From a virus: a DNA stretch of 44,163 nt. A program made the translations under genes and the position numbers. The DNA lies in the UHGV virus genome UHGV-0207246. The stretch is one strand, 5' to 3'. The notes under the pieces are model-generated. The model was not told the DNA's origin, searched no databases, and saw nothing but the letters and a program-made list of their open reading frames with translations. Below, piece by piece: positions 20,280 to 43,844 of the stretch. The stretch's first letter is position 1. Each line of letters starts with the position of its first letter.

Positions 20280-20564
20280 CTAACTATAATAGTTCGCTAT
20301 TAGGTCGTCAACCTGTTTGAACGACCCGACGACAAAAACATTCGCACCACGTTTACGCATCCGCTCATGCTCTCGTAACTGGTGTGGGTCAGGCTTCGTG
20401 CTTTCGTCTTTCTTCACCTCGACGAACCAGACGATGCCGCCCGGGAGAATTACCAGCAGGTCGGGAGCGCCGGAGCGCCCCTCATAAGACAGTTTACGGA
20501 CGAGGCCCCCGATGGCCTCGAATCGCTCTTTTGCGTATTTCTGTATTTTTCCTTCCGGGGTCAT
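20280..20564 (-). CDS. VRR-NUC domain nuclease (PD-(D/E)XK)
   Basis: Motif GAPDLLVILPGGIVWFVEVKK; start set at ATG (track begins at upstream TTG). Confidence 0.55.
   Translation of the reverse strand: MTPEGKIQKYAKERFEAIGGLVRKLSYEGRSGAPDLLVILPGGIVWFVEVKKDESTKPDPHQLREHERMRKRGANVFVVGSFKQVDDLIANYYS
20283..20311 (-). promoter_or_regulatory. class II promoter (TTGACG-17-TATAGT)
   Basis: Reverse complement TTGACGACCTAATAGCGAACTATTATAGT; near-identical spacer to promoters at 24601 and 26753; lies within 3' end of upstream CDS. Confidence 0.6.
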
Positions 20565-20713
20565 GAGCGCAGAACCCAAGTTATAAATGCCCCGCCCAGA
20601 ACGGCAACGCCAACAAACTTAAAGAACAGGCCGTAACAGAACATCGCAGCTATTCCCGCGCCGAGTAACAGTGCGAGCATGGTTACTATGGTCCAAAATA
20701 CAAACTTTGTCAT
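20561..20713 (-). CDS. small membrane protein (50 aa, two hydrophobic segments)
   Basis: RBS GAGGGG; ATGA overlap with VRR-NUC start; hand-translated MTKFVFWTIVTMLALLLGAGIAAMFCYGLFFKFVGVAVLGGAFITWVLRS. Confidence 0.4.
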   Translation of the reverse strand: MTKFVFWTIVTMLALLLGAGIAAMFCYGLFFKFVGVAVLGGAFITWVLRS

Positions 20714-20795
20714 AATACACACCCCTCACGTTTCGTATGTTCAGTACCGCAGCGCGGACAGATTCGACAGTCTTCTTCATAAAACCAGTAGATTT

Positions 20796-20927
20796 TCATT
20801 CCAGCACCCACAGATAAATTGCGATGAACATGCCCAATATGGCAACCATCATGCCGTATTGACCCTCGTGACAGTAGACACCGGCAGCAAATCCCGCCAG
20901 TACCGCGATAATCAGTTTACTTGGCAT
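20796..20927 (-). CDS. small membrane protein (43 aa)
   Basis: RBS AAGGAG 9 nt upstream; hand-translated MPSKLIIAVLAGFAAGVYCHEGQYGMMVAILGMFIAIYLWVLE. Confidence 0.35.
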   Translation of the reverse strand: MPSKLIIAVLAGFAAGVYCHEGQYGMMVAILGMFIAIYLWVLE

Positions 20928-21612
20928 CTCTACATTCTCCTTCAGGCCACCTATTAGGAAAAGACGGTATATGTGAAACTTCTCTCGCCGCTTTTATTCT
21001 TTTAATGGCGGGACCTATCTCCGTGACCATTTCAATGAATGTAAACCGGTGTCCTCTGGTAAGATTACATGTCTGACAACAAGAAACGCAGTTAGATACT
21101 ATGTGCCCGCTTGTATTATCTATGCGGTCTACCCCGACTTTTGTAGTGCTTCCGCAATAATGGCATGGCTGTGATATTAGTTTAATAACGCTTTCCAGTG
21201 TTAAATCGCAGATAAGCCCTTTTCCTGAATCTGCTCTTTTGTATCCTAACAAAAGCGCGTACGCCCGCGTCCTTTGGTCCTTATTCACCAGTTCCCTGCG
21301 TTGCTTGTTGAGACACTCCCGGCAATCTTTCCTGATATGAGAGCCATTACTTTTATTTCCTTTCCTGAAGTTTTCCTCTGTTAAAGGTTTTACCTCCCCA
21401 CACTTTCTGCATTTAACAGGCTTCCCAGTGAAAACATACCAAGGGCTTTCTCGTCTGGATTTACCTTGTAATTTAAGTTTTTCGTCATACTTTTCCTTCC
21501 TGTTAGCATTTACACACTCTTTACACCAGCGTTGCAGCCCGAGGCGCGTTGACTTTGAAAAATACTCTGTAGTCGCCGGTTTATCTTCGCCGCATCTTGA
21601 ACACTTTTTCAT
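20917..21612 (-). CDS. HNH homing endonuclease with two N-terminal Cys4 zinc-ribbon repeats
   Basis: Repeats CSRCGEDKP...CKEC and CRKCGEVKP...CREC then HNH core CHYCG...DRIDNTSGH...CN; start at ATG with RBS GGAG. Confidence 0.7.
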   Translation of the reverse strand: MKKCSRCGEDKPATTEYFSKSTRLGLQRWCKECVNANRKEKYDEKLKLQGKSRRESPWYVFTGKPVKCRKCGEVKPLTEENFRKGNKSNGSHIRKDCRECLNKQRRELVNKDQRTRAYALLLGYKRADSGKGLICDLTLESVIKLISQPCHYCGSTTKVGVDRIDNTSGHIVSNCVSCCQTCNLTRGHRFTFIEMVTEIGPAIKRIKAAREVSHIPSFPNRWPEGECRDAK

Positions 21613-21623
21613 TAATAACTCCA

Positions 21624-21658
21624 AAAAAAAATACCGACATAGCCATTATATCGGTATT
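21624..21658 (-). terminator. rho-independent terminator downstream of DNA polymerase
   Basis: On minus strand ATACCGA-loop-TCGGTAT followed by T9. Confidence 0.5.
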
Positions 21659-21672
21659 TACATTTTCTACAA
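21645..21672 (-). promoter_or_regulatory. candidate promoter for HNH gene (TTGTAG-16-TATAAT)
   Basis: Perfect TATAAT on minus strand located in the loop of the terminator hairpin. Confidence 0.35.
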
Positions 21673-21689
21673 CGTATTTCCTAAATCTA

Positions 21690-23861
21690 CTACTTGGCGT
21701 ATCTGTACATTTCGCTACCTTCTGCTACAAGAGGGAACCCCTCCGCCCATTCCGGCAATTCGCACATCAACCGCTCAAGCTCTGCTACATTGTATTCCGG
21801 TGAATCTGGTGTCTCGCAGATAATCTCATCGTGTACGTGAAGTACAATCGGGTAGCCGTTTGCTTCTACGTTCAGCAGGGCATTAGCCAGCAAATCACGG
21901 CACAATGCCTGAGTGCAGTTTTCCACCAGTTTACCCGAGTAGGTGTACTGGAACCCCCACTGACGGGTTAGCTGATTTTCGCCCTGGTACTTAATGCGCA
22001 CGTTAGTAGACACTTTTCCATCTTCGTCTGTTTCTTTCGACACGCTCAACCCGACGCCTGGATAAGACATAACGCGACCAGACGGCAACGTCATGCGCAG
22101 CCACCAACCGGCGACTTTGTTGCCGTTGTTATCTGTCTCCACGTTGCGCGAAAACTTAACGCCACGCGGCCCTGCGGTGAACTCTTTACCTGGGTTGCGG
22201 ATAGCCGCCATAGCCGCGTCTTCAATATCGCGCCAGAATTGGACTATTGCAGGATTAGCTTCCCGGTACATGCGCTTTAAAGCGTCACAGGTGCGCCAAA
22301 CTTTCTTATCAAGGATATATGAGGGTCGGTCATCTTTTTCACCAGGACGTGGTGGTCGCTTGGCTTCCTGAATACGCGCCCATTCGTATCCGCGTGCGGT
22401 AGCGGCCCAAATATGGTCCGGGAATGTACCGTCTAAAGTGTTAGTCATGTCATTCAAATCAAGACCTAAGTTTTTAGCAAACGTGACGAAAGCACCGACG
22501 CCCCCCGCGTAGCCGAGTCCCAGAACCATTGCTTTGGCTATTTGTCTTTGGTCCTTTGTTACGGCTTCATATGCAACATTGAACACCGTTGATGCGAGTT
22601 TCTTATACACATCAACCCCGTTTACAAATACTTCGATTAAATCGTCTTCACCCGCCAGCCACGCAAGCCCGCGACCCTCAACGTTAGAGTAATCGGCGAC
22701 GACAAACTTATGCCCTGCTTCCGGTATGATGCAACTGCGAACCGTCGATGCCGTTAGCTTGGCTACGTCAAATCGGCGGTGCGCACGGCCCTTAAGTAAC
22801 GCAGAAATGCCTTTATCCAGTTCATCATCATGATAGTACCCGCGCGCCAGGTTCTGCGGCTGGAAGCCTTTACCGGCAAATCGTAATGTACGCTTAGCTC
22901 CACCATACTGTATGCAACCGCGTCGGCGGTCGTCCGAAGAGCGGCCCAGCAGCAGCGGGGTATATTTCGTTGACGCTGTTGACGCGGCCCCGAGGCGCAT
23001 TTCGATAATCATCCGGGCGTCGTCCGGTAAATCATCATCTGCCAACAGGTCGTTAAGCGTCGACTTCTGTGCATTGTGTATGCGGTGCGCGGGCGAAAGT
23101 TCACGCAGAATCGGAAGGAAGTCTTTACCGGTAAGCGAGCCGCCATATTTACGTTGAGCTTCTTCCTGTAACTGTGCCTTGTGCTTCTCTACGGCTTCAA
23201 TCGCGGCTTCCGCCAGTGCGACGTCAACCTTAAATCCGCGGTCGTTGATTAACTGGTCAAGTTCCAGTACACGGTCTTCGAACTCGGAGTTACCCCAACG
23301 CGGCAGCTTATGGAAGACTTCACGCATCGCAGTGATGTCGCTCACGGCGTACTTGATGAACAGCGCCCACTCATCCGGGTGCGTTTCAGCAGTGTAGCGG
23401 CGGATTTTGTAGTTCTTCGGTGTCGGTTTAGAAAAACGCTGAATAAGCGCTTTGCCTCGTTTGTCTTTCGCGTTGTCTGCGGACACGCCAAGCACTTCAC
23501 ACAGCGCATCAAGAGAACCCGGCAGCGCGTGACGAAACGCCCAAATCATCGTATCGATAGTGTTGCTTACCGGAATATCAAAGCCCCAGCAATGCTTCAT
23601 GACGAGCCTGTCGAACATTGAGCCATTGTGCCACACCATCTTAATGCGACTGTTTGGCTTAACCAGACGGCGCAGTGCGCGGTGCAAATCCCCCGGCATG
23701 TCGCTGCCGTCTGTGCAATCCCATACCTGTACAGGCTCGTCATCAAAAGCATAGGTACAGATAAGCACTTCGGTAGTCGGGTGTTCGGCGTAAGCATAGG
23801 AGCCGAATTTCTTTAAATCGGCTTCGGAGAATGTTTCAAAGTCTAAGAACAGGTAACTCAT
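21690..23861 (-). CDS. family A DNA polymerase with 3'-5' exonuclease domain
   Basis: Exo I FLDFETFS; Pol motif A DYSNVEGR, motif B RQIAKAMVLGLGYAGG, motif C LHVHDEI. Confidence 0.85.
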   Translation of the reverse strand: MSYLFLDFETFSEADLKKFGSYAYAEHPTTEVLICTYAFDDEPVQVWDCTDGSDMPGDLHRALRRLVKPNSRIKMVWHNGSMFDRLVMKHCWGFDIPVSNTIDTMIWAFRHALPGSLDALCEVLGVSADNAKDKRGKALIQRFSKPTPKNYKIRRYTAETHPDEWALFIKYAVSDITAMREVFHKLPRWGNSEFEDRVLELDQLINDRGFKVDVALAEAAIEAVEKHKAQLQEEAQRKYGGSLTGKDFLPILRELSPAHRIHNAQKSTLNDLLADDDLPDDARMIIEMRLGAASTASTKYTPLLLGRSSDDRRRGCIQYGGAKRTLRFAGKGFQPQNLARGYYHDDELDKGISALLKGRAHRRFDVAKLTASTVRSCIIPEAGHKFVVADYSNVEGRGLAWLAGEDDLIEVFVNGVDVYKKLASTVFNVAYEAVTKDQRQIAKAMVLGLGYAGGVGAFVTFAKNLGLDLNDMTNTLDGTFPDHIWAATARGYEWARIQEAKRPPRPGEKDDRPSYILDKKVWRTCDALKRMYREANPAIVQFWRDIEDAAMAAIRNPGKEFTAGPRGVKFSRNVETDNNGNKVAGWWLRMTLPSGRVMSYPGVGLSVSKETDEDGKVSTNVRIKYQGENQLTRQWGFQYTYSGKLVENCTQALCRDLLANALLNVEANGYPIVLHVHDEIICETPDSPEYNVAELERLMCELPEWAEGFPLVAEGSEMYRYAK

Positions 23862-23878
23862 TATTTTCGACCCTTAGT

Positions 23879-23901
23879 AAAAAGGCCCAATGAAGGGCCT
23901 T
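23879..23901 (-). terminator. rho-independent terminator
   Basis: AAGGCCC-TTCATT-GGGCCTT then T5 on minus strand. Confidence 0.55.
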
Positions 23902-23920
23902 AGTTAAATTGATTCAGATA

Positions 23921-24547
23921 TTAGCGGCGACGACGCTCGCGGCGCGGTGCTTCATCTTCTTCGTCGTCTTCCAGGTCATTGACGCTTGCAGCGACTTTAG
24001 AACCGCCAAACGCTTTACCTTCACCAACGTATTTAATCGCCAGCAGGTTAACACCGAGGACTTTGTATTTCTGACTGAACCAGATTTCGACGCTTACGTT
24101 AGCAACGCAGCCGCTGTAAACCTGTTCGCCTTCAATCTGTTCACCGTCTACATTGAAGTCCTGTTCTACCTGAGTCTCACCTTTTTTAGAGGTTACAATC
24201 AGTGGCTGTTTCTGTGCCTTCGCTTTGAAGTAGAAGCCTTCCGGGAAGTCTTCAAACGGATTGTCGCGCTCGGCGATGTCTTTAATCGCGCATTTATCCA
24301 TGTGCTTACCTTCGCCGTAGTTGGACTTCATCCACTTCTCGGCGGCGGCTGCACCTAATGCTTCTTCAACTACAGCGTAGACTGTGTCGTAGAGCGCATC
24401 GATTTGCGCGTGGTCAGACGGCAGGATGATAGTTGCGCTATACTGACCTTTAGTGATTGAGCCATCATCGTTTTCACGGTCTTTTTCGCGTTCGAATACG
24501 TTAACCCAAGCAGTGTTTACTTTACGCAGATTTAATTTCAGTCCCAT
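23921..24547 (-). CDS. SSB-like protein (DUF2815-like) candidate
   Basis: Acidic C-terminal region; position between Cas4-like nuclease and PolA resembles the DUF2800-DUF2815-PolA arrangement (recalled, not searched). Confidence 0.4.
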   Translation of the reverse strand: MGLKLNLRKVNTAWVNVFEREKDRENDDGSITKGQYSATIILPSDHAQIDALYDTVYAVVEEALGAAAAEKWMKSNYGEGKHMDKCAIKDIAERDNPFEDFPEGFYFKAKAQKQPLIVTSKKGETQVEQDFNVDGEQIEGEQVYSGCVANVSVEIWFSQKYKVLGVNLLAIKYVGEGKAFGGSKVAASVNDLEDDEEDEAPRRERRRR

Positions 24548-24600
24548 CTTGATTTCTCGCTTTTAAGTTTACTCCGGGAACCGCCCGGCCAGTGATTAGA

Positions 24601-24629
24601 ACTATAATAGCTTACTATTCAGGTGTCAA
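24601..24629 (-). promoter_or_regulatory. class II promoter (TTGACA-17-TATAGT)
   Basis: Reverse complement TTGACACCTGAATAGTAAGCTATTATAGT. Confidence 0.65.
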
Positions 24630-24633
24630 CACT

Positions 24634-25908
24634 TTATTCTAAATCTTCTTCACTAACCTGATCCCACTCAGGACGTTTGTCGTCTGCCGTTGCGACACAT
24701 GGTGCGCCTGGCTTACGGGTAATAAAGTCTTTCAGTTCTTCTTCCGGTATAACTTTAACCGCTTCGGTGGGCGTCATGAGAACTACCTTTTGCAGCATAG
24801 TACCGTACTTCTCGAATACTGCATCGGTATCTTTCCACGCACGATTACCCGGGCGACCCTCAACCAGTTTGTACCCTGGAACTTTCTTACCGGAATGCAA
24901 CGCGGCAGCCATAGCTTTCTCAACCTTGTCGATGTGCTGGCGCAGCATCGGCAACTTCTCATACTCAGCTACGAGTTGCTCAGGAGTGAGTTCCAGCGCA
25001 AAGTCGTCCTCCAGTTCTTCCGCCAGTACGGAATTAACCGTCTTTGTACGCGCGGCGCATTGTTCCGAGAACCTACACCACTGACAACCATCGACCGACG
25101 GCCTGAAGTCCGACGCTTTCAGGTTCTTCTTACCGCGGAAATAAGCATCAAGCGCTAACAGCGCGCGTTTCTGTGCGAACTTAGCGAACAGTTCCAGACC
25201 TTCAACCGAGATGTCCCACTCCGACGCACCGCCCGCGTATGGCTGGAAGATGACCAGACGAACCACGGTGATGTTATAACGTCTCTTGAGTCGGCGATAA
25301 ACACCAAGAGCGTAAAGCATAAGCTGTTTGTTTTCTTTCGCTTCGACGCGATGCCGTCCTGTTTTCAGGTCTGTGATATTAAGTATAAATTCGTCTGTAT
25401 TTGCTTTTTCTAGCACGGCAACAAGGTCAGCGGTTCCGAACGTCTCTAAATCATCCTCCTCGCCTTCTTCACCATCAGCGGGTACTTTGTAGCCAGGATG
25501 TAGCACCTGAGTAAGATTTACGCGCATCTCGAGCTTGGCATAAGTCGCTACGTCGATAATCGCTTTGCAGTAGTCGGTGTACTTGCGCACCTGCTCAATC
25601 ATGTCCGCCGTAATCAGTACCGCGCCTTTCATAGGACTGATTAGCGCCTTAATCTGGCCTTTACCCTCATCCAGCACGTAAGCACCTACTTCGCGCTCTA
25701 ACGGCAACGCAGTGCCTTTGATGTACTGGTTTAAGTGCATCTCAGCTATGGTGTGCATAGCCGTTCCTAATACGGCGGCTTTACCTGACGTGTTAGGAAT
25801 ATCTTTTTCACAGGCCAGTGATGCACTGCACGCCAGCCACTTTTTAGCACCAGACGGCGACAGTAAGGCGTGCACATCGTTATTGCCGCCGCGTTCCTTT
25901 AAAATCAT
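24634..25908 (-). CDS. PD-(D/E)XK nuclease, Cas4/RecB-like (DUF2800-like) with C-terminal Cys cluster
   Basis: Motifs ITDLKTG, QLMLYA, C-terminal CQWCRFSEQC; start at ATG with RBS GGGAGAG, ATGA-coupled to upstream gene. Confidence 0.6.
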   Translation of the reverse strand: MILKERGGNNDVHALLSPSGAKKWLACSASLACEKDIPNTSGKAAVLGTAMHTIAEMHLNQYIKGTALPLEREVGAYVLDEGKGQIKALISPMKGAVLITADMIEQVRKYTDYCKAIIDVATYAKLEMRVNLTQVLHPGYKVPADGEEGEEDDLETFGTADLVAVLEKANTDEFILNITDLKTGRHRVEAKENKQLMLYALGVYRRLKRRYNITVVRLVIFQPYAGGASEWDISVEGLELFAKFAQKRALLALDAYFRGKKNLKASDFRPSVDGCQWCRFSEQCAARTKTVNSVLAEELEDDFALELTPEQLVAEYEKLPMLRQHIDKVEKAMAAALHSGKKVPGYKLVEGRPGNRAWKDTDAVFEKYGTMLQKVVLMTPTEAVKVIPEEELKDFITRKPGAPCVATADDKRPEWDQVSEEDLE

Positions 25909-26177
25909 ACCCTGCTCTCCCACTGGTCAATTAAATGTCGTGTCTTATGGTCGCAGTGCATAGCCCACCCATACATCGACTCGAAGACATAAAAGTCAGG
26001 TTTGGCGAAAGTCGTGCGCTTAATATGTGACACGTGGCGGCCTATGTCTTTAGGCCGTGGCACTTTGCCTAAGTACGCCATCTCTTCCATCTGGTGCGCA
26101 CCGGACGGCGCACGCAACAGCCATAGCGCATCTGTGTTATCCCGCCTGTCAACGGCGCGGTAGAGTTGGTAAATCAT
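25905..26177 (-). CDS. hypothetical protein
   Basis: ORF track; ATGA coupling. Confidence 0.4.
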   Translation of the reverse strand: MIYQLYRAVDRRDNTDALWLLRAPSGAHQMEEMAYLGKVPRPKDIGRHVSHIKRTTFAKPDFYVFESMYGWAMHCDHKTRHLIDQWESRV

Positions 26178-26220
26178 AATTCCGACCCTCAGTTAAAGCG
26201 GCCTGAAGGCCGCCAGATAA

Positions 26221-26721
26221 TTATTCTTCTTCGAAATACTTGTTCTTGATCGCCGTCAGGCGTTCCAGGTACTCTGCCAGGTCTTCATCTTTAATCGCGG
26301 CAATCTTCATCTTCTTACCGGTGAACTCTTCCAGCAGTTCGTCAGAATCGTCGCACGCGGCATCGCTTGGACCTTCGTTAATCGCATCGTCGATAGCCTG
26401 AATCTGGTCCCGAAGAGACTGGTAATCGACTTCTTCTTTCTCTTCTTCCGGCTCTGGCGTAGGCTCCTCTGCTTTAGCTTTACGCGGCTTGCGTTTAGGC
26501 TTCTCGTCTTCCGCCGGTTTAGTGTCGACGATGTTTTCACCTTCGACCGGGATTTCTTTTGTTGCTTCTTCGGTGCACTCGGCTACCGCTTCTTTGGCAT
26601 ACACTACCGTCTCTACTTCCAGCGGCGCGGCAACCTGAACAACCTGTTTCACACTGTTCGCAGCAATCAGTTCATGCGCAACTACGAAACGTTCCAGTAA
26701 TTTCAGAAATTGTTCTAACAT
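26221..26721 (-). CDS. highly acidic protein (candidate DNA mimic / host takeover factor)
   Basis: First gene after strong class II promoter, RBS GAGGAGAG; E/D-rich with KPKRKPRKAKAEE linker. Confidence 0.5.
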   Translation of the reverse strand: MLEQFLKLLERFVVAHELIAANSVKQVVQVAAPLEVETVVYAKEAVAECTEEATKEIPVEGENIVDTKPAEDEKPKRKPRKAKAEEPTPEPEEEKEEVDYQSLRDQIQAIDDAINEGPSDAACDDSDELLEEFTGKKMKIAAIKDEDLAEYLERLTAIKNKYFEEE

Positions 26722-26752
26722 TTGTTTCTCTCCTCTCGTTTGGTATGGGCTA

Positions 26753-26781
26753 ACTATAATAGCGAACTATTCACATGTCAA
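26753..26781 (-). promoter_or_regulatory. class II promoter (TTGACA-17-TATAGT)
   Basis: Perfect -35, 17 bp spacer TGTGAATAGTTCGCTAT, -10 TATAGT, about 30 nt upstream of ATG. Confidence 0.7.
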
Positions 26782-26845
26782 TGGGTTTTTCTAAAATAAT
26801 TAATATGGTACTATTCGCATATCAACTAACTAAGGAGTAATTGAT

Positions 26846-27061
26846 ATGCAACCCTCTGAACTAGGCATCCGTGTAGAACAACGCCGCAAAGAACTCGGCA
26901 TCTCCCAGCGCCGTCTGGCTGTCCTGGCTGGCGTTTCACAGGGCGCGATTAACCAGCTGGCACTTGGGGTAACTCAGGACGTCCGCCCGGCAACGCTGTT
27001 TAAACTGGCGGAAGTGCTGGAAGTAGACGCCAAGTGGCTGGCGTTCGGTGAAGGGGCTTAA
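26846..27061 (+). CDS. XRE-family helix-turn-helix transcriptional regulator (Cro/CI-like)
   Basis: HTH ISQRRLAVLAGVSQGAINQLALG; RBS TAAGGAG; isolated plus-strand gene with its own terminator. Confidence 0.7.
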   Translation: MQPSELGIRVEQRRKELGISQRRLAVLAGVSQGAINQLALGVTQDVRPATLFKLAEVLEVDAKWLAFGEGA

Positions 27062-27078
27062 AGCCCCTTTCTTTTTTA
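27052..27078 (+). terminator. rho-independent terminator
   Basis: GGGGC-TTAAA-GCCCC followed by TTTCTTTTTT. Confidence 0.7.
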
Positions 27079-27079
27079 C

Positions 27080-29493: not shown

Positions 29494-29784
29494 TCACCGT
29501 TTAGCCAACTCTTCCAGCAAATTTTTATACTCTTCAAAATATTCCTCGACCAAATCGTCGCCGAAATAGAAGTCGATATACTCGATATTATCTCCTACGT
29601 TAAGCGATGCCGACATGGTGCTTAGTTGGCGTAAGCTAATTAGCTTCATTTCTGTTTCTACGCAGAAAGGCCGGTAGGTATCAAGGTGACAAGAGATATT
29701 GAAACATAAGGCGAACTCTCCCGCCACGGTGTGGACCATATACACTTCGTTTTCTGCTTTATTGTGGAAAATTACACCTTTCAT
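29494..29784 (-). CDS. hypothetical protein
   Basis: ORF track; ATGA-coupled downstream of HTH gene. Confidence 0.4.
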   Translation of the reverse strand: MKGVIFHNKAENEVYMVHTVAGEFALCFNISCHLDTYRPFCVETEMKLISLRQLSTMSASLNVGDNIEYIDFYFGDDLVEEYFEEYKNLLEELAKR

Positions 29785-29963
29785 TTCACGTTCTCCTTAA
29801 TCCACGCTTCAACTTTATTTCGATCAAATGTACCGGGTAAACGGCGACCCATAACCTTAATACAACAATCCGGGAATTTACCACTGCGCAACCAGTTATT
29901 AATTGTCTGACGTGTTACCCCGATACGTTCGGCGACTTCATTCTGTGTCATGTAATGCTGCAT
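29781..29963 (-). CDS. small HTH DNA-binding protein (AlpA/excisionase-like fold)
   Basis: MTQNEVAERIGVTRQTINNWLRSGKFP; first gene of leftward operon. Confidence 0.55.
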   Translation of the reverse strand: MQHYMTQNEVAERIGVTRQTINNWLRSGKFPDCCIKVMGRRLPGTFDRNKVEAWIKENVK

Positions 29964-29995: not shown

Positions 29996-30024
29996 AGTAT
30001 AGGATAGCGGGAATGTAAAAGCAA
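29996..30024 (-). promoter_or_regulatory. leftward promoter (TTGCTT-17-TATACT)
   Basis: Minus strand TTGCTTTTACATTCCCGCTATCCTATACT, about 35 nt upstream of ATG with RBS AGGAGA. Confidence 0.55.
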
Positions 30025-30061: not shown

Positions 30062-30091
30062 TTGAAAGTTCTTGACTCATGTTTGTATAAT
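30062..30091 (+). promoter_or_regulatory. rightward promoter (TTGAAA-18-TATAAT) of a non-coding unit
   Basis: Perfect -10 TATAAT, -35 TTGAAA with 18 bp spacer; no ORF before the terminator at 30291. Confidence 0.55.
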
Positions 30092-30290: not shown

Positions 30291-30318
30291 GGGCAGGCTT
30301 AAGGCCTGCCCTTTAGTT
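30291..30318 (+). terminator. rho-independent terminator
   Basis: GGGCAGGC-TTAAG-GCCTGCCC followed by TTTAGTT. Confidence 0.6.
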
Positions 30319-30383: not shown

Positions 30384-30412
30384 TTGCGCACCCCAACATA
30401 ATAGGATACTAT
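30384..30412 (+). promoter_or_regulatory. class I early-type promoter (TTGCGC-17-TACTAT)
   Basis: TTGCGCACCCCAACATAATAGGATACTAT; conserved leader to RBS GAGGAG. Confidence 0.6.
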
Positions 30413-30445
30413 TCACTTATCGAAACGAGACAGAGGAGTGGGGTT

Positions 30446-31143: not shown

Positions 31144-31146
31144 GTT

Positions 31147-31494: not shown

Positions 31495-31629
31495 CAGGTC
31501 AATAGGTTACTATTTGACTGAGTGACTTACGCTGCTACACAGCAGCGTACAACTTTAGATTAGTGTCGTCAAAAAGCGACACTTTCACCGAACGCAACAA
31601 TAGAAGCGATTATTGCAGGAGATGCAACA

Positions 31630-31807: not shown

Positions 31808-31836
31808 TTGCACACTAAGATAGAATAGGCTACTAT
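31808..31836 (+). promoter_or_regulatory. class I-type promoter variant (TTGCAC-17-TACTAT)
   Basis: TTGCACACTAAGATAGAATAGGCTACTAT; downstream leader ACAAACGAGAGGAGAG parallels the 30413-30445 leader. Confidence 0.55.
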
Positions 31837-31867
31837 TCATTTACACAAACGAGAGGAGAGACGGAAG

Positions 31868-35445: not shown

Positions 35446-35466
35446 TCTGTTTTCTGTAATGACTAG

Positions 35467-35495
35467 TTGACTATTACCTTAGACCCTATTATATT
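35467..35495 (+). promoter_or_regulatory. promoter (TTGACT-17-TATATT)
   Basis: TTGACTATTACCTTAGACCCTATTATATT; shares the CCCTATTATATT core with class I elements. Confidence 0.55.
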
Positions 35496-35529
35496 TACTC
35501 CATCGACAATGAGAACGGAGTAGAGAGAA

Positions 35530-36582: not shown

Positions 36583-36584
36583 GT

Positions 36585-37134: not shown

Positions 37135-37144
37135 CCACACCACA

Positions 37145-37168
37145 AGCCCTCTACGGAGGGCTTTTCTG
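37145..37168 (+). terminator. rho-independent terminator
   Basis: AGCCCTC-TACG-GAGGGCT then TTTTCTGT. Confidence 0.6.
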
Positions 37169-37202
37169 TACATCCCGCCTAATACCCCTATATAATCCCT
37201 TT

Positions 37203-37245
37203 AGACGCGTAGGGCGCGTCTGGTGCGCTCTGATGGTCAGACGCA
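37203..37245. repeat. interlocking inverted repeats built on GACGC/GCGTC just upstream of terS (candidate pac/terminase recognition or regulatory site)
   Basis: AGACGCG-TAGGG-CGCGTCT and CGTCTG...CAGACG within 43 bp, preceded by TATAAT at 37191-37196. Confidence 0.3.
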
Positions 37246-37261
37246 TATGCAAGGGGATTCT

Positions 37262-37774
37262 ATGAAGCTGAAACTTAAGCAGCCATCACCAGAGGTGGTG
37301 CAAGCTGCACATGAAGAAGCTGTTAGCGCAAACCGTCGCCGTAAACGACCGCGCGGTAAACAGAGCCTTTATCAATCATCCCGTAATTCCGCCGCGTTGT
37401 GGGACCCGGACTATTGCGACGAATTGATTCGTTTCTTCGACCGCACGTCGTGGGAACTTGTACCTACGTCTAAGGGTGACGAACGCCCCCTTATTCAGGA
37501 TAAGCCGCCGTCATTGGCCCGCTTTGCCTTACACATCGGCGTCACTATCCCGATTATTAAGCTGTGGTTGCGCGAGATTCCAGCATTTGCGGAAGCCTAT
37601 GAAACAGCACAGGCGCTGGAAGAGGCGTATTTCACTGAGACAGGGGCTGCGGGTATCTCCGCTACGTTTGCTGCCGCGAAACTGGGGCTGAATAAGAAAG
37701 AAGAATCGACTGGCGAGGGTTCTGAACCTATCGAGATTCGTTTTGTTAAGGCTGTTAAACCGGGGGTGGAGTAA
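37262..37774 (+). CDS. terS: terminase small subunit
   Basis: About 170 aa gene immediately upstream of and overlapping the large terminase; RBS AAGGGGA. Confidence 0.55.
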   Translation: MKLKLKQPSPEVVQAAHEEAVSANRRRKRPRGKQSLYQSSRNSAALWDPDYCDELIRFFDRTSWELVPTSKGDERPLIQDKPPSLARFALHIGVTIPIIKLWLREIPAFAEAYETAQALEEAYFTETGAAGISATFAAAKLGLNKKEESTGEGSEPIEIRFVKAVKPGVE

Positions 37775-39009
37775 TGGATATCCCATTAACCGAACCCCAA
37801 CAAGACTTTGTATTCAGCACAAAAACACATCCGGCTATTGTCGCAGGACTGGGGGCGGGTAAGTCCCGCGCGGCAACGATGCGCCTTTTGTATCTTATGT
37901 TGCGCGAGCGCGGGATAAACACCCTGTACACCATGCCTACGTATGACCTGTTGAAGCTGCGCGCCATCCCTGGTGTGGTTGATGACCTGAATATGATGGG
38001 GCTTAAGTATGACCTCAACAAATCGGAATACAGTATCCACGTTAAGGGGTACGGTACTATGTTTTTCAGGTCATACGACAACCCGAACCGTCTAATCGCT
38101 TTTGAAGTAGCCCATTCTGTCGCCGATGAACTTGACGTTCTTACTAAAGAACAGGCGTCTCTGGTGTGGCGTAAAATTTCAGAGCGTACCCGACAGCCTT
38201 GCAGAGGGGGTAACAGTATTGCCGCTGTGACTACCCCTGACCAGGGATTCTCTGGATTTGTGTATGACTATTGGGTCACTAACGCTGACAGTTCTACGGA
38301 ACTGATTAAGGCGTCTACATTGTCGAACCCATATTTACCTGACGGCTACGTCGAACAGATACGCAGGAACTACGATGCGGCTTTAGCCGATATGTATATC
38401 AACGGTGAATTTGTCAGTTTGACTGCTAATAAGGTGTATCACTATTTCAAACGAAGCACCCATGACTCCACTCGCACCTTGCGGAACGGAGATGCGCTCC
38501 ACATAGGGCTGGACTTTAATATTGGTGGATGTTGCGCCACCGTGAGCGTTATCGAAGACGGCAACCCGACGGTTGTTGATGAGTTTGTCAGCCATAATAC
38601 CGACGACTTCGTCAATAATGTCAGGATACGGTATCCAGGCCATACGGTTACGGTTTACCCTGACGCGTCTGGTCGCTCAGGCCACACTAACGCATCATTA
38701 TCCGACATAGGTATCATCGAAAAGGCCGGCTTACGCGTTAACGCTCCAAGTAAGAACCCATTCGTTAAAGACAGAATAAACGCGGTTAACGCTCTTTTGT
38801 CGCATAGCCGTTTGAGGGTTAACACTTCAAAATGCCCTAAACTAACGCAGTCACTGGAGACGCAGGGGTATAACGATAATGGTGAACCAGAGAAGTTTAA
38901 AACCCACCCGGCGATTGACGACTGGAACGACAGTTTAGGCTATTGTATGCATAGGTTGTTCCCTGTTGTTCGCCCTGTTATCAATACACCAGTTCGTTTC
39001 GCACTTTAA
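37774..39009 (+). CDS. terL: terminase large subunit
   Basis: Walker A-like GLGAGKS near N-terminus; position between terS and portal. Confidence 0.7.
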   Translation: MDIPLTEPQQDFVFSTKTHPAIVAGLGAGKSRAATMRLLYLMLRERGINTLYTMPTYDLLKLRAIPGVVDDLNMMGLKYDLNKSEYSIHVKGYGTMFFRSYDNPNRLIAFEVAHSVADELDVLTKEQASLVWRKISERTRQPCRGGNSIAAVTTPDQGFSGFVYDYWVTNADSSTELIKASTLSNPYLPDGYVEQIRRNYDAALADMYINGEFVSLTANKVYHYFKRSTHDSTRTLRNGDALHIGLDFNIGGCCATVSVIEDGNPTVVDEFVSHNTDDFVNNVRIRYPGHTVTVYPDASGRSGHTNASLSDIGIIEKAGLRVNAPSKNPFVKDRINAVNALLSHSRLRVNTSKCPKLTQSLETQGYNDNGEPEKFKTHPAIDDWNDSLGYCMHRLFPVVRPVINTPVRFAL

Positions 39010-39021
39010 GAGGATTATTCA

Positions 39022-40491
39022 ATGTTAACTATGAACGGTCAGAATCAGGGTGTTAAGACTAAACACCGGGAATGGCTGCATCACTTCGATAAATGGCAGA
39101 AGGTACGCCATGCGCTGGAGGGCGACCTTATTCGCTATCTGCGTAACGTTGGGAAGAACGAACCTGACCCGACCTATGCGGCCCAACGGCAGGAAGAGTA
39201 CGAGAACGGCGCTATCTGCTACAACTTCACCAAACGTACCCTGGCCGGGATGGTTGGTAGCGTCATGCGCAAAGACCCAGAGCAGATTATACCTCCTGAA
39301 ATGGAGTACCTGCTGCGTAATGCCGACGGTTCCGGTGTCGGGCTGTGGCAGCACGCTCAGGATTCTTTGATGGAGATTGACTCGGTGGGCCGTGGGGGGC
39401 TGCTGGTGGACGCGCCGGAGACAGCAGCAGCAACGGCGGCAGAACAGAACGCGGGGCTATTAAACCCGGTCATTGCATTCTACACTGCAGAGAACATCAT
39501 CAACTGGCGGCTGACCCGCGTCGGCTCAGTGAACCGTGTGACGATGGTCGTATTGCGCGAGGTGTGGGAATACTCAGAACCAGGCGCAGAGTTTGAAACA
39601 AAGTTCGGGGAGCAATACCGTGTTCTCGATTTGATTGAAGGCCGTTACCGTCAGCGCATTTACCGCTTCGATGCTGAAGGCGGTGCTCAGGATGAAGTAA
39701 TCGAAATCTTCCCGGAACTTGGCGAACAGTTACGCGGTAAAATACCGTTCACTTTTATTGGGGCAAGCAACAATGACGCAACCATTGACGACGCACCTTT
39801 GCTGCCGTTGGCTGAGCTTAATATCGGGCATTTCCGCAACAGTGCGGACAATGAGGAATCCAGTTTCGTCGTAGGTCAGCCTACTCTGTTCATCGCCCCG
39901 GGCGAGAACATGAGCATGGAACAGTGGAAAGAAGCCAACCCTCACGGCGTACGCATGGGGTCGCGCTCGGGTCATAACATCGGTTACGGCGGCAATGCGT
40001 TTCTGGTTCAGGCGGAGGAGAACAACCTCGCTAAACAGAATATGCTGGATAAAGAGAACCAGGCCATTCAGATTGGTGCGCAGCTTATCACCCCGACGCA
40101 GCAAATCACCGCTGAATCTGCCCGTCTGCAACGCGGGGCGGATACGTCCGTTATGGCAACAATCGCACGTAACGTAAGTATGGCGTATACCGATGCGTTG
40201 CGCTGGGTAGCGGCGATGCTGGGACTGCGGGAAGACACAGAGATTGAGTTCAAGCTGAATATGGAGTTCTTCTTGCAACCTATGACTGCTCAGGACCGCG
40301 CACAGTGGATGGCGGATATTAACGCCGGCCTGTTACCCGCTACTGCTTACTACGCGGCATTGCGTAAGGCTGGTGTAACTGACTGGACTGACGAGGACAT
40401 TCAGAACGCTATCGAGGATGCACCACTGCCGTTAGGCGCTGTCACTCAGGCGGCGGGGGAGATTCCGCAGTCGGCGCAGCAACAGGAGTAA
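39022..40491 (+). CDS. portal protein
   Basis: 489 aa ORF directly after terL and before head morphogenesis gene. Confidence 0.65.
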   Translation: MLTMNGQNQGVKTKHREWLHHFDKWQKVRHALEGDLIRYLRNVGKNEPDPTYAAQRQEEYENGAICYNFTKRTLAGMVGSVMRKDPEQIIPPEMEYLLRNADGSGVGLWQHAQDSLMEIDSVGRGGLLVDAPETAAATAAEQNAGLLNPVIAFYTAENIINWRLTRVGSVNRVTMVVLREVWEYSEPGAEFETKFGEQYRVLDLIEGRYRQRIYRFDAEGGAQDEVIEIFPELGEQLRGKIPFTFIGASNNDATIDDAPLLPLAELNIGHFRNSADNEESSFVVGQPTLFIAPGENMSMEQWKEANPHGVRMGSRSGHNIGYGGNAFLVQAEENNLAKQNMLDKENQAIQIGAQLITPTQQITAESARLQRGADTSVMATIARNVSMAYTDALRWVAAMLGLREDTEIEFKLNMEFFLQPMTAQDRAQWMADINAGLLPATAYYAALRKAGVTDWTDEDIQNAIEDAPLPLGAVTQAAGEIPQSAQQQE

Positions 40492-40493
40492 AG

Positions 40494-40518
40494 AAAAAGG
40501 CCCCTTTCGGGGCCTTAG
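40494..40518. terminator. bidirectional rho-independent terminator
   Basis: AAAAAGGCCCC-TTTC-GGGGCCTT then AGTTTTATT. Confidence 0.7.
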
Positions 40519-40520
40519 TT

Positions 40521-40733
40521 TTATTCATGTGTCGCTGCTCTGAAATTAAGTTCTTCACGAGGGATAAAACCTCTATCAGTTTTCACATAACAAGTTGTGT
40601 AACTATACATTACCTCTCTGCCTGTGACATCTCCGTAGTTCTCACACCCGTGTTTATCTAAGCTACGTACACCAGCAGCAATTACCAGTGAAACTGCCAG
40701 TGTCGTCAATACCGCGATAATTAATTCTTTCAT
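40521..40733 (-). CDS. small exported/membrane-anchored Cys-containing protein (70 aa)
   Basis: N-terminal hydrophobic MKELIIAVLTTLAVSLVIAAG; driven by class I early-type promoter. Confidence 0.45.
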   Translation of the reverse strand: MKELIIAVLTTLAVSLVIAAGVRSLDKHGCENYGDVTGREVMYSYTTCYVKTDRGFIPREELNFRAATHE

Positions 40734-40766
40734 CTTTAAATCCCTTATCTCTCGTTTCGATAGCTG

Positions 40767-40795
40767 AATAGTACCCTATTATATTGGTGTCTGCA
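40767..40795 (-). promoter_or_regulatory. class I early-type promoter (TTGCAG-17-TACTAT)
   Basis: Reverse complement TTGCAGACACCAATATAATAGGGTACTAT; same region may carry a rightward TCGATA-17-TATATT promoter. Confidence 0.55.
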
Positions 40796-40840
40796 AATAT
40801 TATTTTTATGCGTTACACTGGCGATACTACAGGAGGGCAT

Positions 40841-42778
40841 ATGAGCTTACTTACATCCCTAATCAGCCACCAGATATGGCTGCAACGCACCGCATCCGGC
40901 GAAGTGAAAGACCTCACACCGTTCATTCAGGAGATGCGGGATGAAATCAAACGGCAGGTGCTGTTATTCGGTGACGACGGGCGAAGCACTGCGCGACTGA
41001 ATAAATTGTTACGCGACCTAGAAGAAGCACTGACAGGACTTACGGGTGACTGGCAAACAAAGCTGACAGAAGACCTTAAGGACCTGGCGGCGTATGAGGC
41101 TGAGTGGAATGTAAAGACACTCACGGCCAACGTCAACGCTGAATTTGTTACGCCTACTGCCGAACAGGTGTGGGCCGCTGCCGAGTTTCAGCCTCTGTCG
41201 TTAAGCGACAAGCCAGTAGATTTCACTAAGCTGATGGGTGGCTGGGGTGAAACAGAAGTATCGCGCCTGGTAACTGGCGTTAAGATGGGCTTTGTTCAGG
41301 GTCAAACCACACGGCAGATTGTTAAGAATGTTGTAGGCGCTGGCGGACTGGCCGACATCTCTGAGCGTAACGCCGCTACCGTAATACGTACGGCGCTGGC
41401 TCACGTATCCAACGAAGCCCGTAACGAGACGTACCGCCAGAACGACGACATCATCGAGAAATACGAGTGGGTGTCAACGCTGGACAGCCGTACCAGTACA
41501 ACGTGTTTCACGGCTGAAACAGAATTAGCGCCCATCGCGGGGATGGACGCGGTAATGCGCGGACTCTATTCAGGAAAAATCTTTACCATCGAACTTTCCA
41601 ACGGCGAGAAGTTCAGTGGCACCCCGAAACACCCTGTACTCACGCAATACGGATGGACTCCGCTTGATGAACTCGATCCAACTAAGCATGTCTTGTATAC
41701 CACTGTTGACAAAGTGACTGTGCTCGAAACAGTGAAGAACATAAACATGCCAGCCAGAGCGGATTATATTTTTAATACGCTCGCTGATTTCCCCATCAGG
41801 AAAATGGTAAGCACGAGTCCCGCGGCAACAGATTTCTATGGCGATGGAGTGGGACTCAATGGCAAAATCGACATTGTACGGGCCGATTGCAAACTGCGGA
41901 ACTACGTCCACGCCAGCGGAATTAAACAATTCAAAAGCGAGGGTTTCAGTCTTATTCATAGCGCCGCTTTGCTGTCGGACGATAGCTCTGGCGATTTTCT
42001 CCTCCGGGGTGAATGTCCTGTGAGTGTGCCCGCGCTTAGCGAGGCCAAGTGTTTTGACCATAGAATAGAAAACTGTTTTGCTTACTTGGGTCCTTCTTAT
42101 GCACTCAATAGGCGGGACGCCGGACTCGAACAATTCTATAGCCCTTTTTTGATTCAAAATGGTGTCGTTAGAAACCCAACCACGGGGTCGATCATGCATG
42201 AGTCCGAGCTTCTTGAGAAATGTTGTTACCGTGGTGGTAGTGACGCCGTAATTCTTGGCTATGATGCTGGCGGGAGTGCCATCTCGGTACAAAGAACAAA
42301 TATCATCCGCATAAGCGTCGAGTTTAGAACGTGCCATGTTTATACCCTCTCTAGTAGTCAAGGATATTATACAGCAGGTAGTGCGATAGTCAAGAATTGC
42401 AGGGCCAGAGACGGAATGACGTGGGAAATTGGAAAAGGGCCGATGCCGCCAGCGCATCCGAATTGCAGAAGTACCACGGCCCCGGTGATTAGCTCGGAGT
42501 TCGACTTCCTTGATAAAGGCGCAAAACGCGCGGCACGCGGGGCGGACGGCGGTACTCAGGTAAGCGCGGACACAACCTACTACGAGTTCCTTAAACAACA
42601 GCCCGCATGGTTTCAGGACCAGGCGCTCGGCCCTGTTCGCGGTAAGATTTTCCGTAACAGCGGTATATCACCAGAGGAGTTTCGCGTAATATCTGTAGAT
42701 GGTTTTGGGCGTCCGCTCACGCTTAAGCAGATGGCGGAACTCGATAAACGTGTTGCTGATTATCTGAAAGGGGAATAA
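40841..42778 (+). CDS. head morphogenesis protein (Mu F / SPP1 gp7-like) containing a 298-codon intein
   Basis: RBS AGGAGGG; extein motif LDSRTSTT | C RARDGMTWEIGKGPMPPAHPNCRS is contiguous only after removing residues 241-538 of the track ORF. Confidence 0.6.
   Translation: MSLLTSLISHQIWLQRTASGEVKDLTPFIQEMRDEIKRQVLLFGDDGRSTARLNKLLRDLEEALTGLTGDWQTKLTEDLKDLAAYEAEWNVKTLTANVNAEFVTPTAEQVWAAAEFQPLSLSDKPVDFTKLMGGWGETEVSRLVTGVKMGFVQGQTTRQIVKNVVGAGGLADISERNAATVIRTALAHVSNEARNETYRQNDDIIEKYEWVSTLDSRTSTTCFTAETELAPIAGMDAVMRGLYSGKIFTIELSNGEKFSGTPKHPVLTQYGWTPLDELDPTKHVLYTTVDKVTVLETVKNINMPARADYIFNTLADFPIRKMVSTSPAATDFYGDGVGLNGKIDIVRADCKLRNYVHASGIKQFKSEGFSLIHSAALLSDDSSGDFLLRGECPVSVPALSEAKCFDHRIENCFAYLGPSYALNRRDAGLEQFYSPFLIQNGVVRNPTTGSIMHESELLEKCCYRGGSDAVILGYDAGGSAISVQRTNIIRISVEFRTCHVYTLSSSQGYYTAGSAIVKNCRARDGMTWEIGKGPMPPAHPNCRSTTAPVISSEFDFLDKGAKRAARGADGGTQVSADTTYYEFLKQQPAWFQDQALGPVRGKIFRNSGISPEEFRVISVDGFGRPLTLKQMAELDKRVADYLKGE
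41570..42337 (-). CDS. antisense gene inside the intein: tandem HTH DNA-binding repeats plus DUF559 (Vsr-like PD-(D/E)XK) endonuclease, candidate homing endonuclease
   Basis: IGPYNVDFA...IAIEI...GWHVYVL pattern matches DUF559 (GGYRLDFA...LAVEVDG...GWRVLRF); HTH segments ASIIAKNYGVTTTTVTTFLKKLGL and IECIRRTQVSKTVFYSMVKTLGL; RBS GAGGG 7 nt before ATG. Confidence 0.55.
   Translation of the reverse strand: MARSKLDAYADDICSLYRDGTPASIIAKNYGVTTTTVTTFLKKLGLMHDRPRGWVSNDTILNQKRAIELFESGVPPIECIRRTQVSKTVFYSMVKTLGLAKRGHTHRTFTPEEKIARAIVRQQSGAMNKTETLAFELFNSAGVDVVPQFAIGPYNVDFAIESHSIAIEICCRGTRAYHFPDGEISERIKNIIRSGWHVYVLHCFEHSHFVNSGIQDMLSWIEFIKRSPSVLREYRVFRGATELLAVGKFDGKDFS
42366..42393 (-). promoter_or_regulatory. 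promoter for the antisense endonuclease gene (TTGACT-16-TATAAT), encoded within intein blocks F/G
   Basis: Minus strand TTGACTATCGCACTACCTGCTGTATAAT about 30 nt upstream of the antisense ATG. Confidence 0.5.
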
Positions 42779-43239
42779 TGATGGGCTTTTTCAAAGTAAC
42801 TGACGTACCGTCGCGTCGCGTAGTCCAGTACGCCCGTGTGTCTGGCTCCGGTGAGAACGTGGTATTTATTGAAGATGAAAGTGTACTCGGTACACCTGTA
42901 GACGATATGCCGTTTGCAGATAAAACTGGTATTGCGCTACCGACCGCAGGTATGCTTTACGAGATTCCGTATCTGGCAGACGCTGGAGACGTGTATTTCT
43001 CTGCGCAACCGCAGGATACCGAACTGACAGACGGCAGCGCGACTCTCACTGTCGAAGTTAAGGCTGGTAAAGCGCCATATGTGCTGACCTGGTACAAAGA
43101 CGGTAAGGAAGTGGTAAACGCACCTGAAGAGGCTTTGTCTCTGACGGTTAATGCAGTCGGTGAATACTTCGTCAAGGTTACCGATGCCGATGGCGTAGAG
43201 GCCTTCAGTAAAGCGGCGAAGGTCACTAAGCCAGAATGA
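42778..43239 (+). CDS. Ig-like domain protein (paralogous domain to 2533..2874)
   Basis: ATLTVEVKAGKAPYVLTWYKDGKEV...VGEYFVKVTDADG parallels LTVAVTGGLEPYSYQWYKNNNAI...SGTYKVVVHDVYG. Confidence 0.5.
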   Translation: MMGFFKVTDVPSRRVVQYARVSGSGENVVFIEDESVLGTPVDDMPFADKTGIALPTAGMLYEIPYLADAGDVYFSAQPQDTELTDGSATLTVEVKAGKAPYVLTWYKDGKEVVNAPEEALSLTVNAVGEYFVKVTDADGVEAFSKAAKVTKPE

Positions 43240-43240
43240 T

Positions 43241-43272
43241 AAAAGGCCCCGTATGGGGCCCTAGTTTTATTT
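43241..43272. terminator. bidirectional rho-independent terminator
   Basis: AAAAGGCCCC-GTAT-GGGGCC then AGTTTTATTT. Confidence 0.65.
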
Positions 43273-43788
43273 AAATCGCGCAGGCATTAACACCATAAAG
43301 GCCGTGTTTGAAAATAGTATTTTACATCCTCTGGTTTGGTCCTGGAAATCGAAACGAGCAATTTCATTTTTGTATGCCTTAGAAATCTTGTACGCGTCTG
43401 CCAAATAACGCAGGGTGAACCCTATACTATCGACAACACCCGGTGTGATGTGCGCCACGCGTCTCCAGTCAGGAAAGTTTCCTTCTACAACATCTACCGG
43501 AAGTGTACATATAAGCGCACGATTATCGTCATAGAAAGATACACTGCCGTTGTCGTGGTTTACCTCCGCGTAGTTAAATTTAGAAGGCTCTCTCCCTTTG
43601 ATGTCTATGAGAGTCCCTTTCTCAACGTTGGTCTTCACATTGTCGCAGAACAATCTATGACCGTCCGTAGACACTATCAATCCTTCAGGGTCTATGTAAA
43701 AAGCGTTCAAATAGTAGCGAACATCATTTTTAGCCCTGCATATTTTCGCCCCTACATACGCAGGGAAAGTAATTACTGTAGTAACCAT
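43267..43788 (-). CDS. hypothetical protein (173 aa) expressed from class I early-type promoter
   Basis: ORF track; RBS AGGAGATGAAAA. Confidence 0.5.
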   Translation of the reverse strand: MVTTVITFPAYVGAKICRAKNDVRYYLNAFYIDPEGLIVSTDGHRLFCDNVKTNVEKGTLIDIKGREPSKFNYAEVNHDNGSVSFYDDNRALICTLPVDVVEGNFPDWRRVAHITPGVVDSIGFTLRYLADAYKISKAYKNEIARFDFQDQTRGCKILFSNTAFMVLMPARFK

Positions 43789-43815
43789 TTTTCATCTCCT
43801 GTTTAAATTAACTGA

Positions 43816-43844
43816 ATAGTACCCTGTTATGTTGGTGTGCGCAA
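43816..43844 (-). promoter_or_regulatory. class I early-type promoter (TTGCGC-17-TACTAT)
   Basis: Reverse complement TTGCGCACACCAACATAACAGGGTACTAT. Confidence 0.55.

Follow-up and report, generated by a model that had tools for sequence, protein, structure and literature searches.

A 14-bp inverted repeat at predicted promoters of a virulent Kagunavirus phage is a candidate operator for the phage's own Cro-like protein

Introduction

In phage 434, each operator is a dyad of 14 bp in which the outer bases (ACAA) are conserved and the protein makes no contact with the central 4 bp. They overlap core promoter elements, form two clusters (OR1–3 and OL1–3), and more than one of them lies in the divergent control region beside the regulator gene. 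Here we describe a 14-bp dyad, AATAG-N4-CTATT, that recurs at predicted promoters of the virus genome UHGV-0207246, a sequence of 44,163 bp that was analysed at full length (the window; Table 1), and we propose that it is probably an operator read by the 71-aa Cro-like protein of the same phage (an HTH_3 protein encoded at 26846–27061; Xre hereafter). The dyads resemble 434 operators in their 14-bp, 5-N4-5 design with fixed half-sites and a variable centre, in their overlap with promoter core elements, and in the presence of more than one site in the divergent control region of the regulator gene. Likewise, the 71-aa, all-helical Xre can be aligned with 434 Cro over its full length and has the same fold. 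Unlike in 434, the half-site sequence is different, with Q28 alone kept among the 434 residues that read the operator; the sites are scattered genome-wide, at about a dozen promoters, rather than gathered in two clusters; and, judging from the annotations of relatives, a cI partner, an integrase and a lysogeny module are all missing.

Two other described systems are comparable. The controller (C) proteins of restriction-modification (R-M) systems and their C-boxes are similar in combining small dimers of the Xre fold with dyads inside promoters, and serve as timing devices. However, C proteins both activate and repress, and do so at no more than two promoters, within their own operon, whereas the dyads described here are found at many promoters and we infer repression alone. 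Like the promoter-early stem-loop cassettes of T4-type phages, the near-identical promoter cassettes of this genome flank hypervariable small genes and are probably recombination joints. By contrast with the T4-type cassettes, the conserved core here is a short dyad within the promoter, and its conservation footprint is that of a site for a protein, not of a stem-loop in a transcript.

The motif sequence is already in print. Seven "phage promoters" of phage fBC-Eco01, identified with PHIRE and having the consensus tgAATAGTa-ccTATTat-T, were ascribed to a phage RNA polymerase (PMC9825357), and TAATAGTACCCTATTATGTT of phage SGP-C, also from PHIRE, was given as a putative regulatory element (PMC8790156). 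The dyad symmetry, the different registers relative to the promoter, and a candidate binding protein are in neither report.

Results

A 14-bp inverted repeat is enriched at predicted promoters

The exact sequence AATAG-N4-CTATT occurs eight times in the window, starting at positions 8456, 20288, 24606, 26758, 30400, 31501, 31824 and 40767, as compared to a mean of 0.03 and a maximum of 1 in dinucleotide-preserving shuffles. It ranks first among all 5-N(0–8)-5 palindromes counted in the window, bearing out the claim of a first-pass annotation of this DNA that its promoters have a 14-bp inverted repeat in common. Allowing up to one mismatch, there are 15 sites where 1.1 are expected. Seven of these carry one mismatch: four (26802, 35462, 43815 and 43906) are promoter-associated and conserved in relatives, and the remaining three (15594, 29126 and 42064) are intragenic, a number that chance predicts. 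All eight exact sites and all four conserved one-mismatch sites are located at promoters or between genes. A position weight matrix built from nine strong sites gave scores above 10 bits only at promoter or intergenic positions, with none inside a gene, and the same matrix gave 0–4 matches in shuffled genomes. When oriented alike, the nine strong sites constitute a single directional module, TGAATAG-N4-CTATTAT. A PHIRE-like scan (20-mers with up to 4 mismatches) returned two repeat families only: the dyad and a set of near-identical terminators.

The window is ~92% identical to Kagunavirus phages (Guernseyvirinae siphoviruses of E. coli) such as Bas74 and Bas72, with several hundred Salmonella Jerseyvirus genomes as more distant matches. 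Based on the annotated relatives Bas74 and EC3-1, structural and lysis genes are read rightward, replication genes leftward (roughly 18.6–30 kb), and small early genes rightward from ~30.4 kb; the annotations of these two relatives list no gene for an integrase, a CI repressor or an RNA polymerase.

The sites fall into classes that differ in where the dyad is placed (Table 1). The dyad occupies the -35/-10 spacer in class II, covers the -10 element in class I, and surrounds the -35 element in class III, such that its centre is at approximately -18.5, -12.5 and -33.5, respectively. One site of phage SE2 has a further register (TTGCAT-17-TATTAT). Since the register of the dyad varies, with at least three geometries, a fixed contact with RNA polymerase cannot account for the repeat. 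Classes I and II had been recognised previously as two promoter families, and both are present; the third geometry and the orphan site had been overlooked, such that the earlier list lacked the exact orphan repeat at 31501–31514 and the class III repeats at 35462–35475 and 43906–43919.

Both class I and class II have 17-bp spacers, within the 16–18 bp of a sigma-70 layout. Class II sites are the top-scoring promoter-like sites of their region in a promoter scan, matching 10–11 of the 12 hexamer positions, and the scan places them at 26781–26753, 24629–24601 and 20311–20283, exactly where they had been annotated. The class I hexamers match consensus at three of six (TTGCRC) and four of six (TACTAT) positions, and both hexamers are near-invariant in orthologs. 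The annotated class I coordinates agree with the sequence, apart from 40767–40795, which should read 40768–40796. At nine sites, a start codon with a Shine-Dalgarno sequence is found 26–58 nt past the dyad. We rejected the notion that the sites are promoters for a phage RNA polymerase, since neither Bas74 nor EC3-1 has an annotated gene for such an enzyme and the hexamers are of the sigma-70 type.

Table 1. Predicted promoter-operator sites of the window and the two candidate regulator genes.
Feature	Coordinates	Strand	Elements	Target or position
Class I putative promoter-operator	8456–8485	-	-10 TACTAT 8462–8457; -35 TTGCAC 8485–8480; repeat 8456–8469 (AATAGTACCCTATT)	Leftward 108-aa gene 8102–8428, within late-gene region; repeat-ATG gap 27 nt
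Class II putative promoter-operator	20283–20311	-	TTGACG-17-TATAGT; repeat 20288–20301 occupies spacer	63-aa gene and helicase operon
Class II putative promoter-operator	24601–24629	-	TTGACA-17-TATAGT; repeat 24606–24619	Single-stranded DNA-binding protein gene; DNA polymerase gene beyond terminator at 23883
Class II putative promoter-operator	26753–26781	-	TTGACA-17-TATAGT; repeat 26758–26771	166-aa gene and exonuclease operon; divergent from Cro-like gene
Imperfect putative operator	26786–26815	+	Repeat 26802–26815 (AATATGGTACTATT) over -10 TACTAT	Promoter of Cro-like gene
Class I putative promoter-operator	30384–30413	+	TTGCGC-17-TACTAT; repeat 30400–30413	First rightward block of small early genes, ATG 30446
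Orphan exact repeat	31501–31514		AATAGGTTACTATT; no recognisable -35
Class I putative promoter-operator	31808–31837	+	TTGCAC-17-TACTAT; repeat 31824–31837
Class III site	35462–35495	+	One-mismatch repeat ACTAGTTGACTATT around -35 of TTGACT-17-TATATT	Precedes small genes and terminase block
Class I putative promoter-operator	40767–40796	-	TTGCAG-17-TACTAT; repeat 40767–40780	Leftward 70-aa gene 40521–40733
Reverse reading of the preceding site		+	TCGATA-17-TATATT	Toward gene with ATG 40841
Class I putative promoter-operator	43815–43844	-	TTGCGC-17-TACTAT; one-mismatch repeat 43815–43828 (AACAG half-site)	Leftward 173-aa gene 43267–43788
Everted palindrome	43898–43919	+	ACTATTCGAATAGT (43898–43911) overlaps class III-like AATAGTTGACTTTT (43906–43919); TTGACT inside
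71-aa HTH_3 (Xre/Cro-type) protein; favoured reader	26846–27061	+	Terminator 27050–27070	Monocistronic
60-aa HTH_17 (excisionase/MerR-like) protein; disfavoured candidate	29781–29963	-	Pfam HTH_17

Half-sites are conserved more strictly than the bases between them

We compared 38 Kagunavirus contigs fetched around the Xre gene, in which orthologous promoters were located by their flanks, without use of the motif. Among the class II orthologs, 3 of 27 half-site columns were variable as compared to 15 of 24 columns in the linker and central N4 (Fisher p = 2.8e-4). The mean minor-base fraction was at most 0.013 in the half-sites, and 0.13–0.24 in the 4-nt linker and the central N4. The class II -35 and -10 hexamers were near-invariant, with 1 or 0 variable columns each. 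At the 26758 site, neither half-site varied in 29 unique orthologs, and at the 26802 site the mismatch (AATAT) was itself unchanged in 29 unique orthologs. A search of the genome and its relatives thus shows the motif to be enriched in the window and its half-sites to be almost invariant in the Kagunavirus contigs. In agreement with the earlier annotation, conservation exceeds what sigma-70 needs, with half-sites fixed while spacer columns vary and with registers that differ. These comparisons support the view that the dyad is a shared operator for a phage regulator.

A 71-aa Cro-like protein is the favoured reader of the dyad

The first-pass annotation put forward two small helix-turn-helix proteins as candidate regulators: Xre, and a 60-aa HTH_17 protein (29781–29963; HTH_17 hereafter). 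The former fits well, being a homologue of 434 Cro; the latter is disfavoured, its recognition helix being variable and its gene replaced in some relatives (see below). Xre matches Pfam HTH_3 (E = 2.3e-12) and aligns with 434 Cro over residues 6–68, essentially full length (E = 5.4e-7). An AlphaFold2 (AF2) model of Xre has five helices (predicted local distance difference test score, pLDDT, of 80), and a Foldseek search with this model matched 434 Cro and 434 repressor with template modelling (TM) scores of 0.73–0.76; the best structural matches also included P22 c2, SinR, and the R-M controllers C.AhdI and C.BclI. Of 39 Kagunavirus loci, 38 encode the same recognition helix, SQGAINQLALG, which is unchanged even in Xre homologues with just 78–87% identity overall. 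A parallel is found in the lambdoid phage CobraSix, where a Cro protein 39% identical to Xre adjoins three dyads, ACAGN-N4-NCTGT, that are likewise 14 bp long and built alike. Word-indexed protein searches with Xre or HTH_17 returned close relatives only, and no distant phage sharing the recognition helix.

The 26802 and 26758 sites lie 44 bp apart in the divergent control region of the Xre gene, which starts at 26846. We considered and rejected a lambdoid cI-cro immunity region as a description of this locus, since the product of the divergent gene is acidic, 166 aa long and without a helix-turn-helix, and neither an integrase nor CI is annotated in Bas74 or EC3-1. Based on the homology to 434 Cro, the two sites flanking the gene, and the invariant recognition helix, we favour Xre as the reader: the dyads are probably operators for the phage's own Cro-like dimer, set within host-type sigma-70 promoters, insofar as this can be judged from sequence.

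By analogy with 434 Cro on its 14-bp operators, Xre would bind the dyad as a dimer, each subunit placing its recognition helix on one half-site. The bound dyad would exclude RNA polymerase, as suggested by the overlap of every dyad geometry with a core promoter element. Accumulating Xre would then turn down the promoters of early genes, replication genes and small leftward genes together, and the imperfect, conserved operator on its own promoter would confer weaker autoregulation.

Several observations weigh against this proposal. The class I hexamers are weak and score under the threshold of the promoter scan, and in the Guernseyvirinae literature we found no binding, footprint, transcription-start or transcription-control experiments. 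Jerseyvirus Xre is 51% identical to the Kagunavirus protein and differs at four positions of the recognition helix (SQSLITHLATG), yet the core motif, AATAG-N4-CTATT, is the same. Cornellvirus VSiP and Serratia phage Otaku have an Xre homologue (42–43% identity) and no shared dyad; we looked in both for a diverged dyad co-varying with Xre and found vestigial half-sites only. Judged by which genomes carry each gene, presence or absence of the motif at the genus level suits HTH_17, which VSiP and Otaku also lack, at least as well as it suits Xre. Since this pattern fits either protein, some doubt about the reader remains. Lastly, simple repression would hit late genes too if class I sites, read in reverse as described below, prove to be real late-operon promoters.

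The genera also differ in bases around the core. At the position adjoining AATAG, all 21 unique Jerseyvirus sites have T, whereas 76% of Kagunavirus sites have G, and Jerseyviruses retain deviant half-sites at the two operators closest to the Xre gene. Although VSiP is without the dyad, it carries GTGAATAGTTAT twice in direct orientation, with 10 nt between the copies, at ~37163–37195, downstream of the primase gene; each copy holds a GAATAG half-site.

Alternative explanations for the repeat

Some class I sites might also work in the other direction. Read in reverse, they present a -10-like TATATT or TATGTT toward a major operon; the TATRKT side faces a major operon at eight of the nine strong sites, and the reverse -10 is degenerate (TCTATC) at 31824, one of two sites that need no promoter that way. 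In the late-gene region, and where early and replication genes meet, dyads lie between putative promoters that point away from each other. One reverse reading (40757–40785) passes the promoter scan. However, the reverse -10-like TATRTT is kept while the -35 is not (GTTACA in the window, GGTGTA in Bas74 and EC3-1), and the reverse -35 at the 30400 site is also not conserved (TCGATA, GCTATA). Since the -35 varies between relatives, we rejected these readings as conserved late promoters, and bidirectional promoters or a toggle remain a minority reading. In its fullest form, which we consider fairly unlikely, the Cro-like protein would be the master timer of a strictly virulent, cI-less phage: the dimer would silence the small leftward or early promoter and spare or help the opposite major-operon promoter, and the cassettes would also serve as gene-swap joints.

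A second possibility is that the dyad is read by HTH_17, acting as a repressor, an activator, or a factor that loads antitermination machinery. Like the motif, HTH_17 is restricted to Kagunavirus and Jerseyvirus, and it is 82% identical between the two genera with nearly alike helices (TRQTINNW and TRRTLNNW). A helix-turn-helix gene is among four early genes in a Kagunavirus RNA sequencing study that gives timing at the gene level, without promoter mapping (PMC12645636); by gene number this is presumably HTH_17, and the supplements of that paper do not identify the early genes. The HTH_17 gene's own promoter is without the dyad: the apparent promoter of the HTH_17/primase operon is TTGCTT-17-TATACT (30024–29996, minus strand), with TTGATT-17-TATACT as its SE2 equivalent. 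Nonetheless, at least three variants of the HTH_17 helix exist within Kagunavirus (TRQTINNW, TRRTLNNW and S[T/P]MTLNRW). STMTLNRW is found in EC3-1 and two of the contigs (L017 and L032). The variants alter the residues likeliest to read bases, yet all orthologous sites are unchanged; EC3-1 still has eight exact sites. Two further contigs (L030 and L031) have, in place of HTH_17, unrelated genes for proteins of 149 aa and 47 aa, and L031 keeps six exact sites. These helix variants and gene replacements, with the motif unchanged, lead us to disfavour HTH_17 as the reader. In addition, small HTH_17-type proteins lack, to our knowledge, the dimerisation helix of MerR. We found no solved structure close to HTH_17. 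A few Escherichia phages with an Xre gene gave no HTH_17 match. Overall, we regard reading by HTH_17 as unlikely. A MerR-type spacer operator was likewise rejected, since it needs a 19–20 bp spacer, whereas the spacer here is 17 bp and the 60-aa HTH_17 has no coiled-coil dimerisation helix.

The replacement of HTH_17 also takes in its neighbour (12559–13144 in L031 and 3627–4209 in L030, both minus strand), and the 47-aa protein has a CxxC...CxxC pattern. The HTH_17/primase promoter is one half of a dyad-free divergent pair (TTGCTT-17-TATACT at 29996–30024, minus strand; strong TTGAAA-18-TATAAT at 30062–30091, plus strand). The rightward member faces ~200 nt with no convincing gene, ending in a terminator at 30291–30311; the final ~90 nt, terminator included, are near-identical between Kagunavirus and Jerseyvirus, above the conservation of coding DNA. 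This ~200-nt region may specify a small RNA; an Rfam search of the window gave no matches.

A third protein was considered as a reader and set aside. The first gene past the 20288 promoter (20058–20249, minus strand) overlaps the 5' part of the helicase gene and encodes a 63-aa protein (phrog_4879, function unknown). The Kagunavirus and Jerseyvirus versions of this protein are 98% identical, which is far more than the average for the genome. The protein is missing from VSiP and Otaku, and is thus absent where the motif is absent, but it appears beta-rich by sequence and has no DNA-binding signature.

It is also conceivable that no protein reads the repeat, and that it is a by-product of promoter cassettes that have been duplicated, gene-converted, and used as joints for gene swaps. 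Paralogous sites are near-identical in promoter and leader, with AAACGAGAGGAG in common; the cassette at 31824 precedes different genes in different phages; and the second repeat family, the terminators, is likewise near-identical. Homogenisation would keep entire blocks, yet the linker and N4 vary among orthologs and paralogs while the ten half-site bases are fixed. Moreover, the dyad is retained in different registers amid otherwise unrelated flanks, and a cassette origin gives no account of its symmetry. We judge the chance that this explanation suffices to be slim.

Features of the cassettes themselves can be described independently of their origin. Four leaders of class I and class II sites (26721–26745, 30420–30445, 31845–31867 and 40734–40760) share AAACGAGAGGAG(AG), which includes the Shine-Dalgarno sequence. 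At 31824, the promoter and leader are fixed and the next gene (31868 onward) varies by phage, with at least eight different starts across the loci compared (L009–L045); by this comparison of sequences the slot behind the cassette is hypervariable. The terminator family, AAGGCCCC-N4-GGGGCCTT, is found at operon ends (6656–6675, 18479–18498, 23883–23902, 40497–40516 and 43243–43262); at least two of these hairpins have T-runs on both strands, and the hairpin also occurs in SE2 and in VSiP.

Reading of the dyad by a DNA-binding protein of the host, E. coli or Salmonella, is improbable. Phages that infect two different host genera share an identical core motif despite the divergence of phage Xre, and the consensus for SlyA, TTAGCAAGCTAA, has a TAG-N4-CTA core in common with the dyad. 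However, Cornellvirus, whose host is also Salmonella, lacks the dyad, and the concerted, genus-specific differences in flanking bases point to a phage-encoded partner.

A role as a DNA structure (hairpin or cruciform) is scarcely credible: the 5-bp inverted repeat is perfect, and one SE2 site has changed symmetrically (AGTAG...CTACT), but the arms are A/T-rich and 5 bp long, a predicted single-strand stability of just -1.5 to -1.9 kcal/mol makes such a role unlikely, and the sites are upstream of the inferred transcription starts, hence outside the RNA.

Other elements near the sites

Several sites have counterparts in relatives. The 8456 site is also present in Bas74 and EC3-1. At 35462, the Jerseyvirus counterpart is a mirror-image version, AATAGTTGACTAGT. 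The left half of the 31501 orphan is conserved in relatives and the right half is degenerate. Directly after this orphan dyad is a hairpin, TACGCTGCT-ACAC-AGCAGCGTA (31528–31549), that is retained in both genera, even where the right half of the dyad has been lost.

The first-pass annotation had also described a perfect palindrome of the AATAG pentamer close to the 43815 promoter. This palindrome is real (ACTATTCGAATAGT, at 43898–43911) and is part of the 43898–43919 element in Table 1, which is present in EC3-1; SE2 carries AAAAGTAGACTTTT at this position. The region 43911–44139 contains a -35-like TTGACT, ~200 nt of non-coding DNA and a strong terminator (44120–44139), after which comes the first rightward late gene (base 1); the arrangement in SE2 is similar. 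This layout resembles the PR'-tR' leader of lambda and, by that analogy, hints at antitermination control of late genes.

Discussion

A Cro-type repressor with its operator is a familiar kind of regulatory pair, and the finding described here improves on literature in which the motif had already appeared. What is less usual is the setting: a strictly virulent phage, with the operator spread over about a dozen promoters. If correct, our interpretation corrects the published ascription of these sites to a phage RNA polymerase, and describes a Cro-type circuit that persists in a purely lytic phage in the absence of cI. Phages of the genera Kagunavirus and Jerseyvirus are commonly isolated for therapy and biocontrol, and have been proposed as small chassis for engineering. 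If one small repressor and a 14-bp operator govern most non-structural promoters, they would offer an easy way to time phage genes or to switch them.

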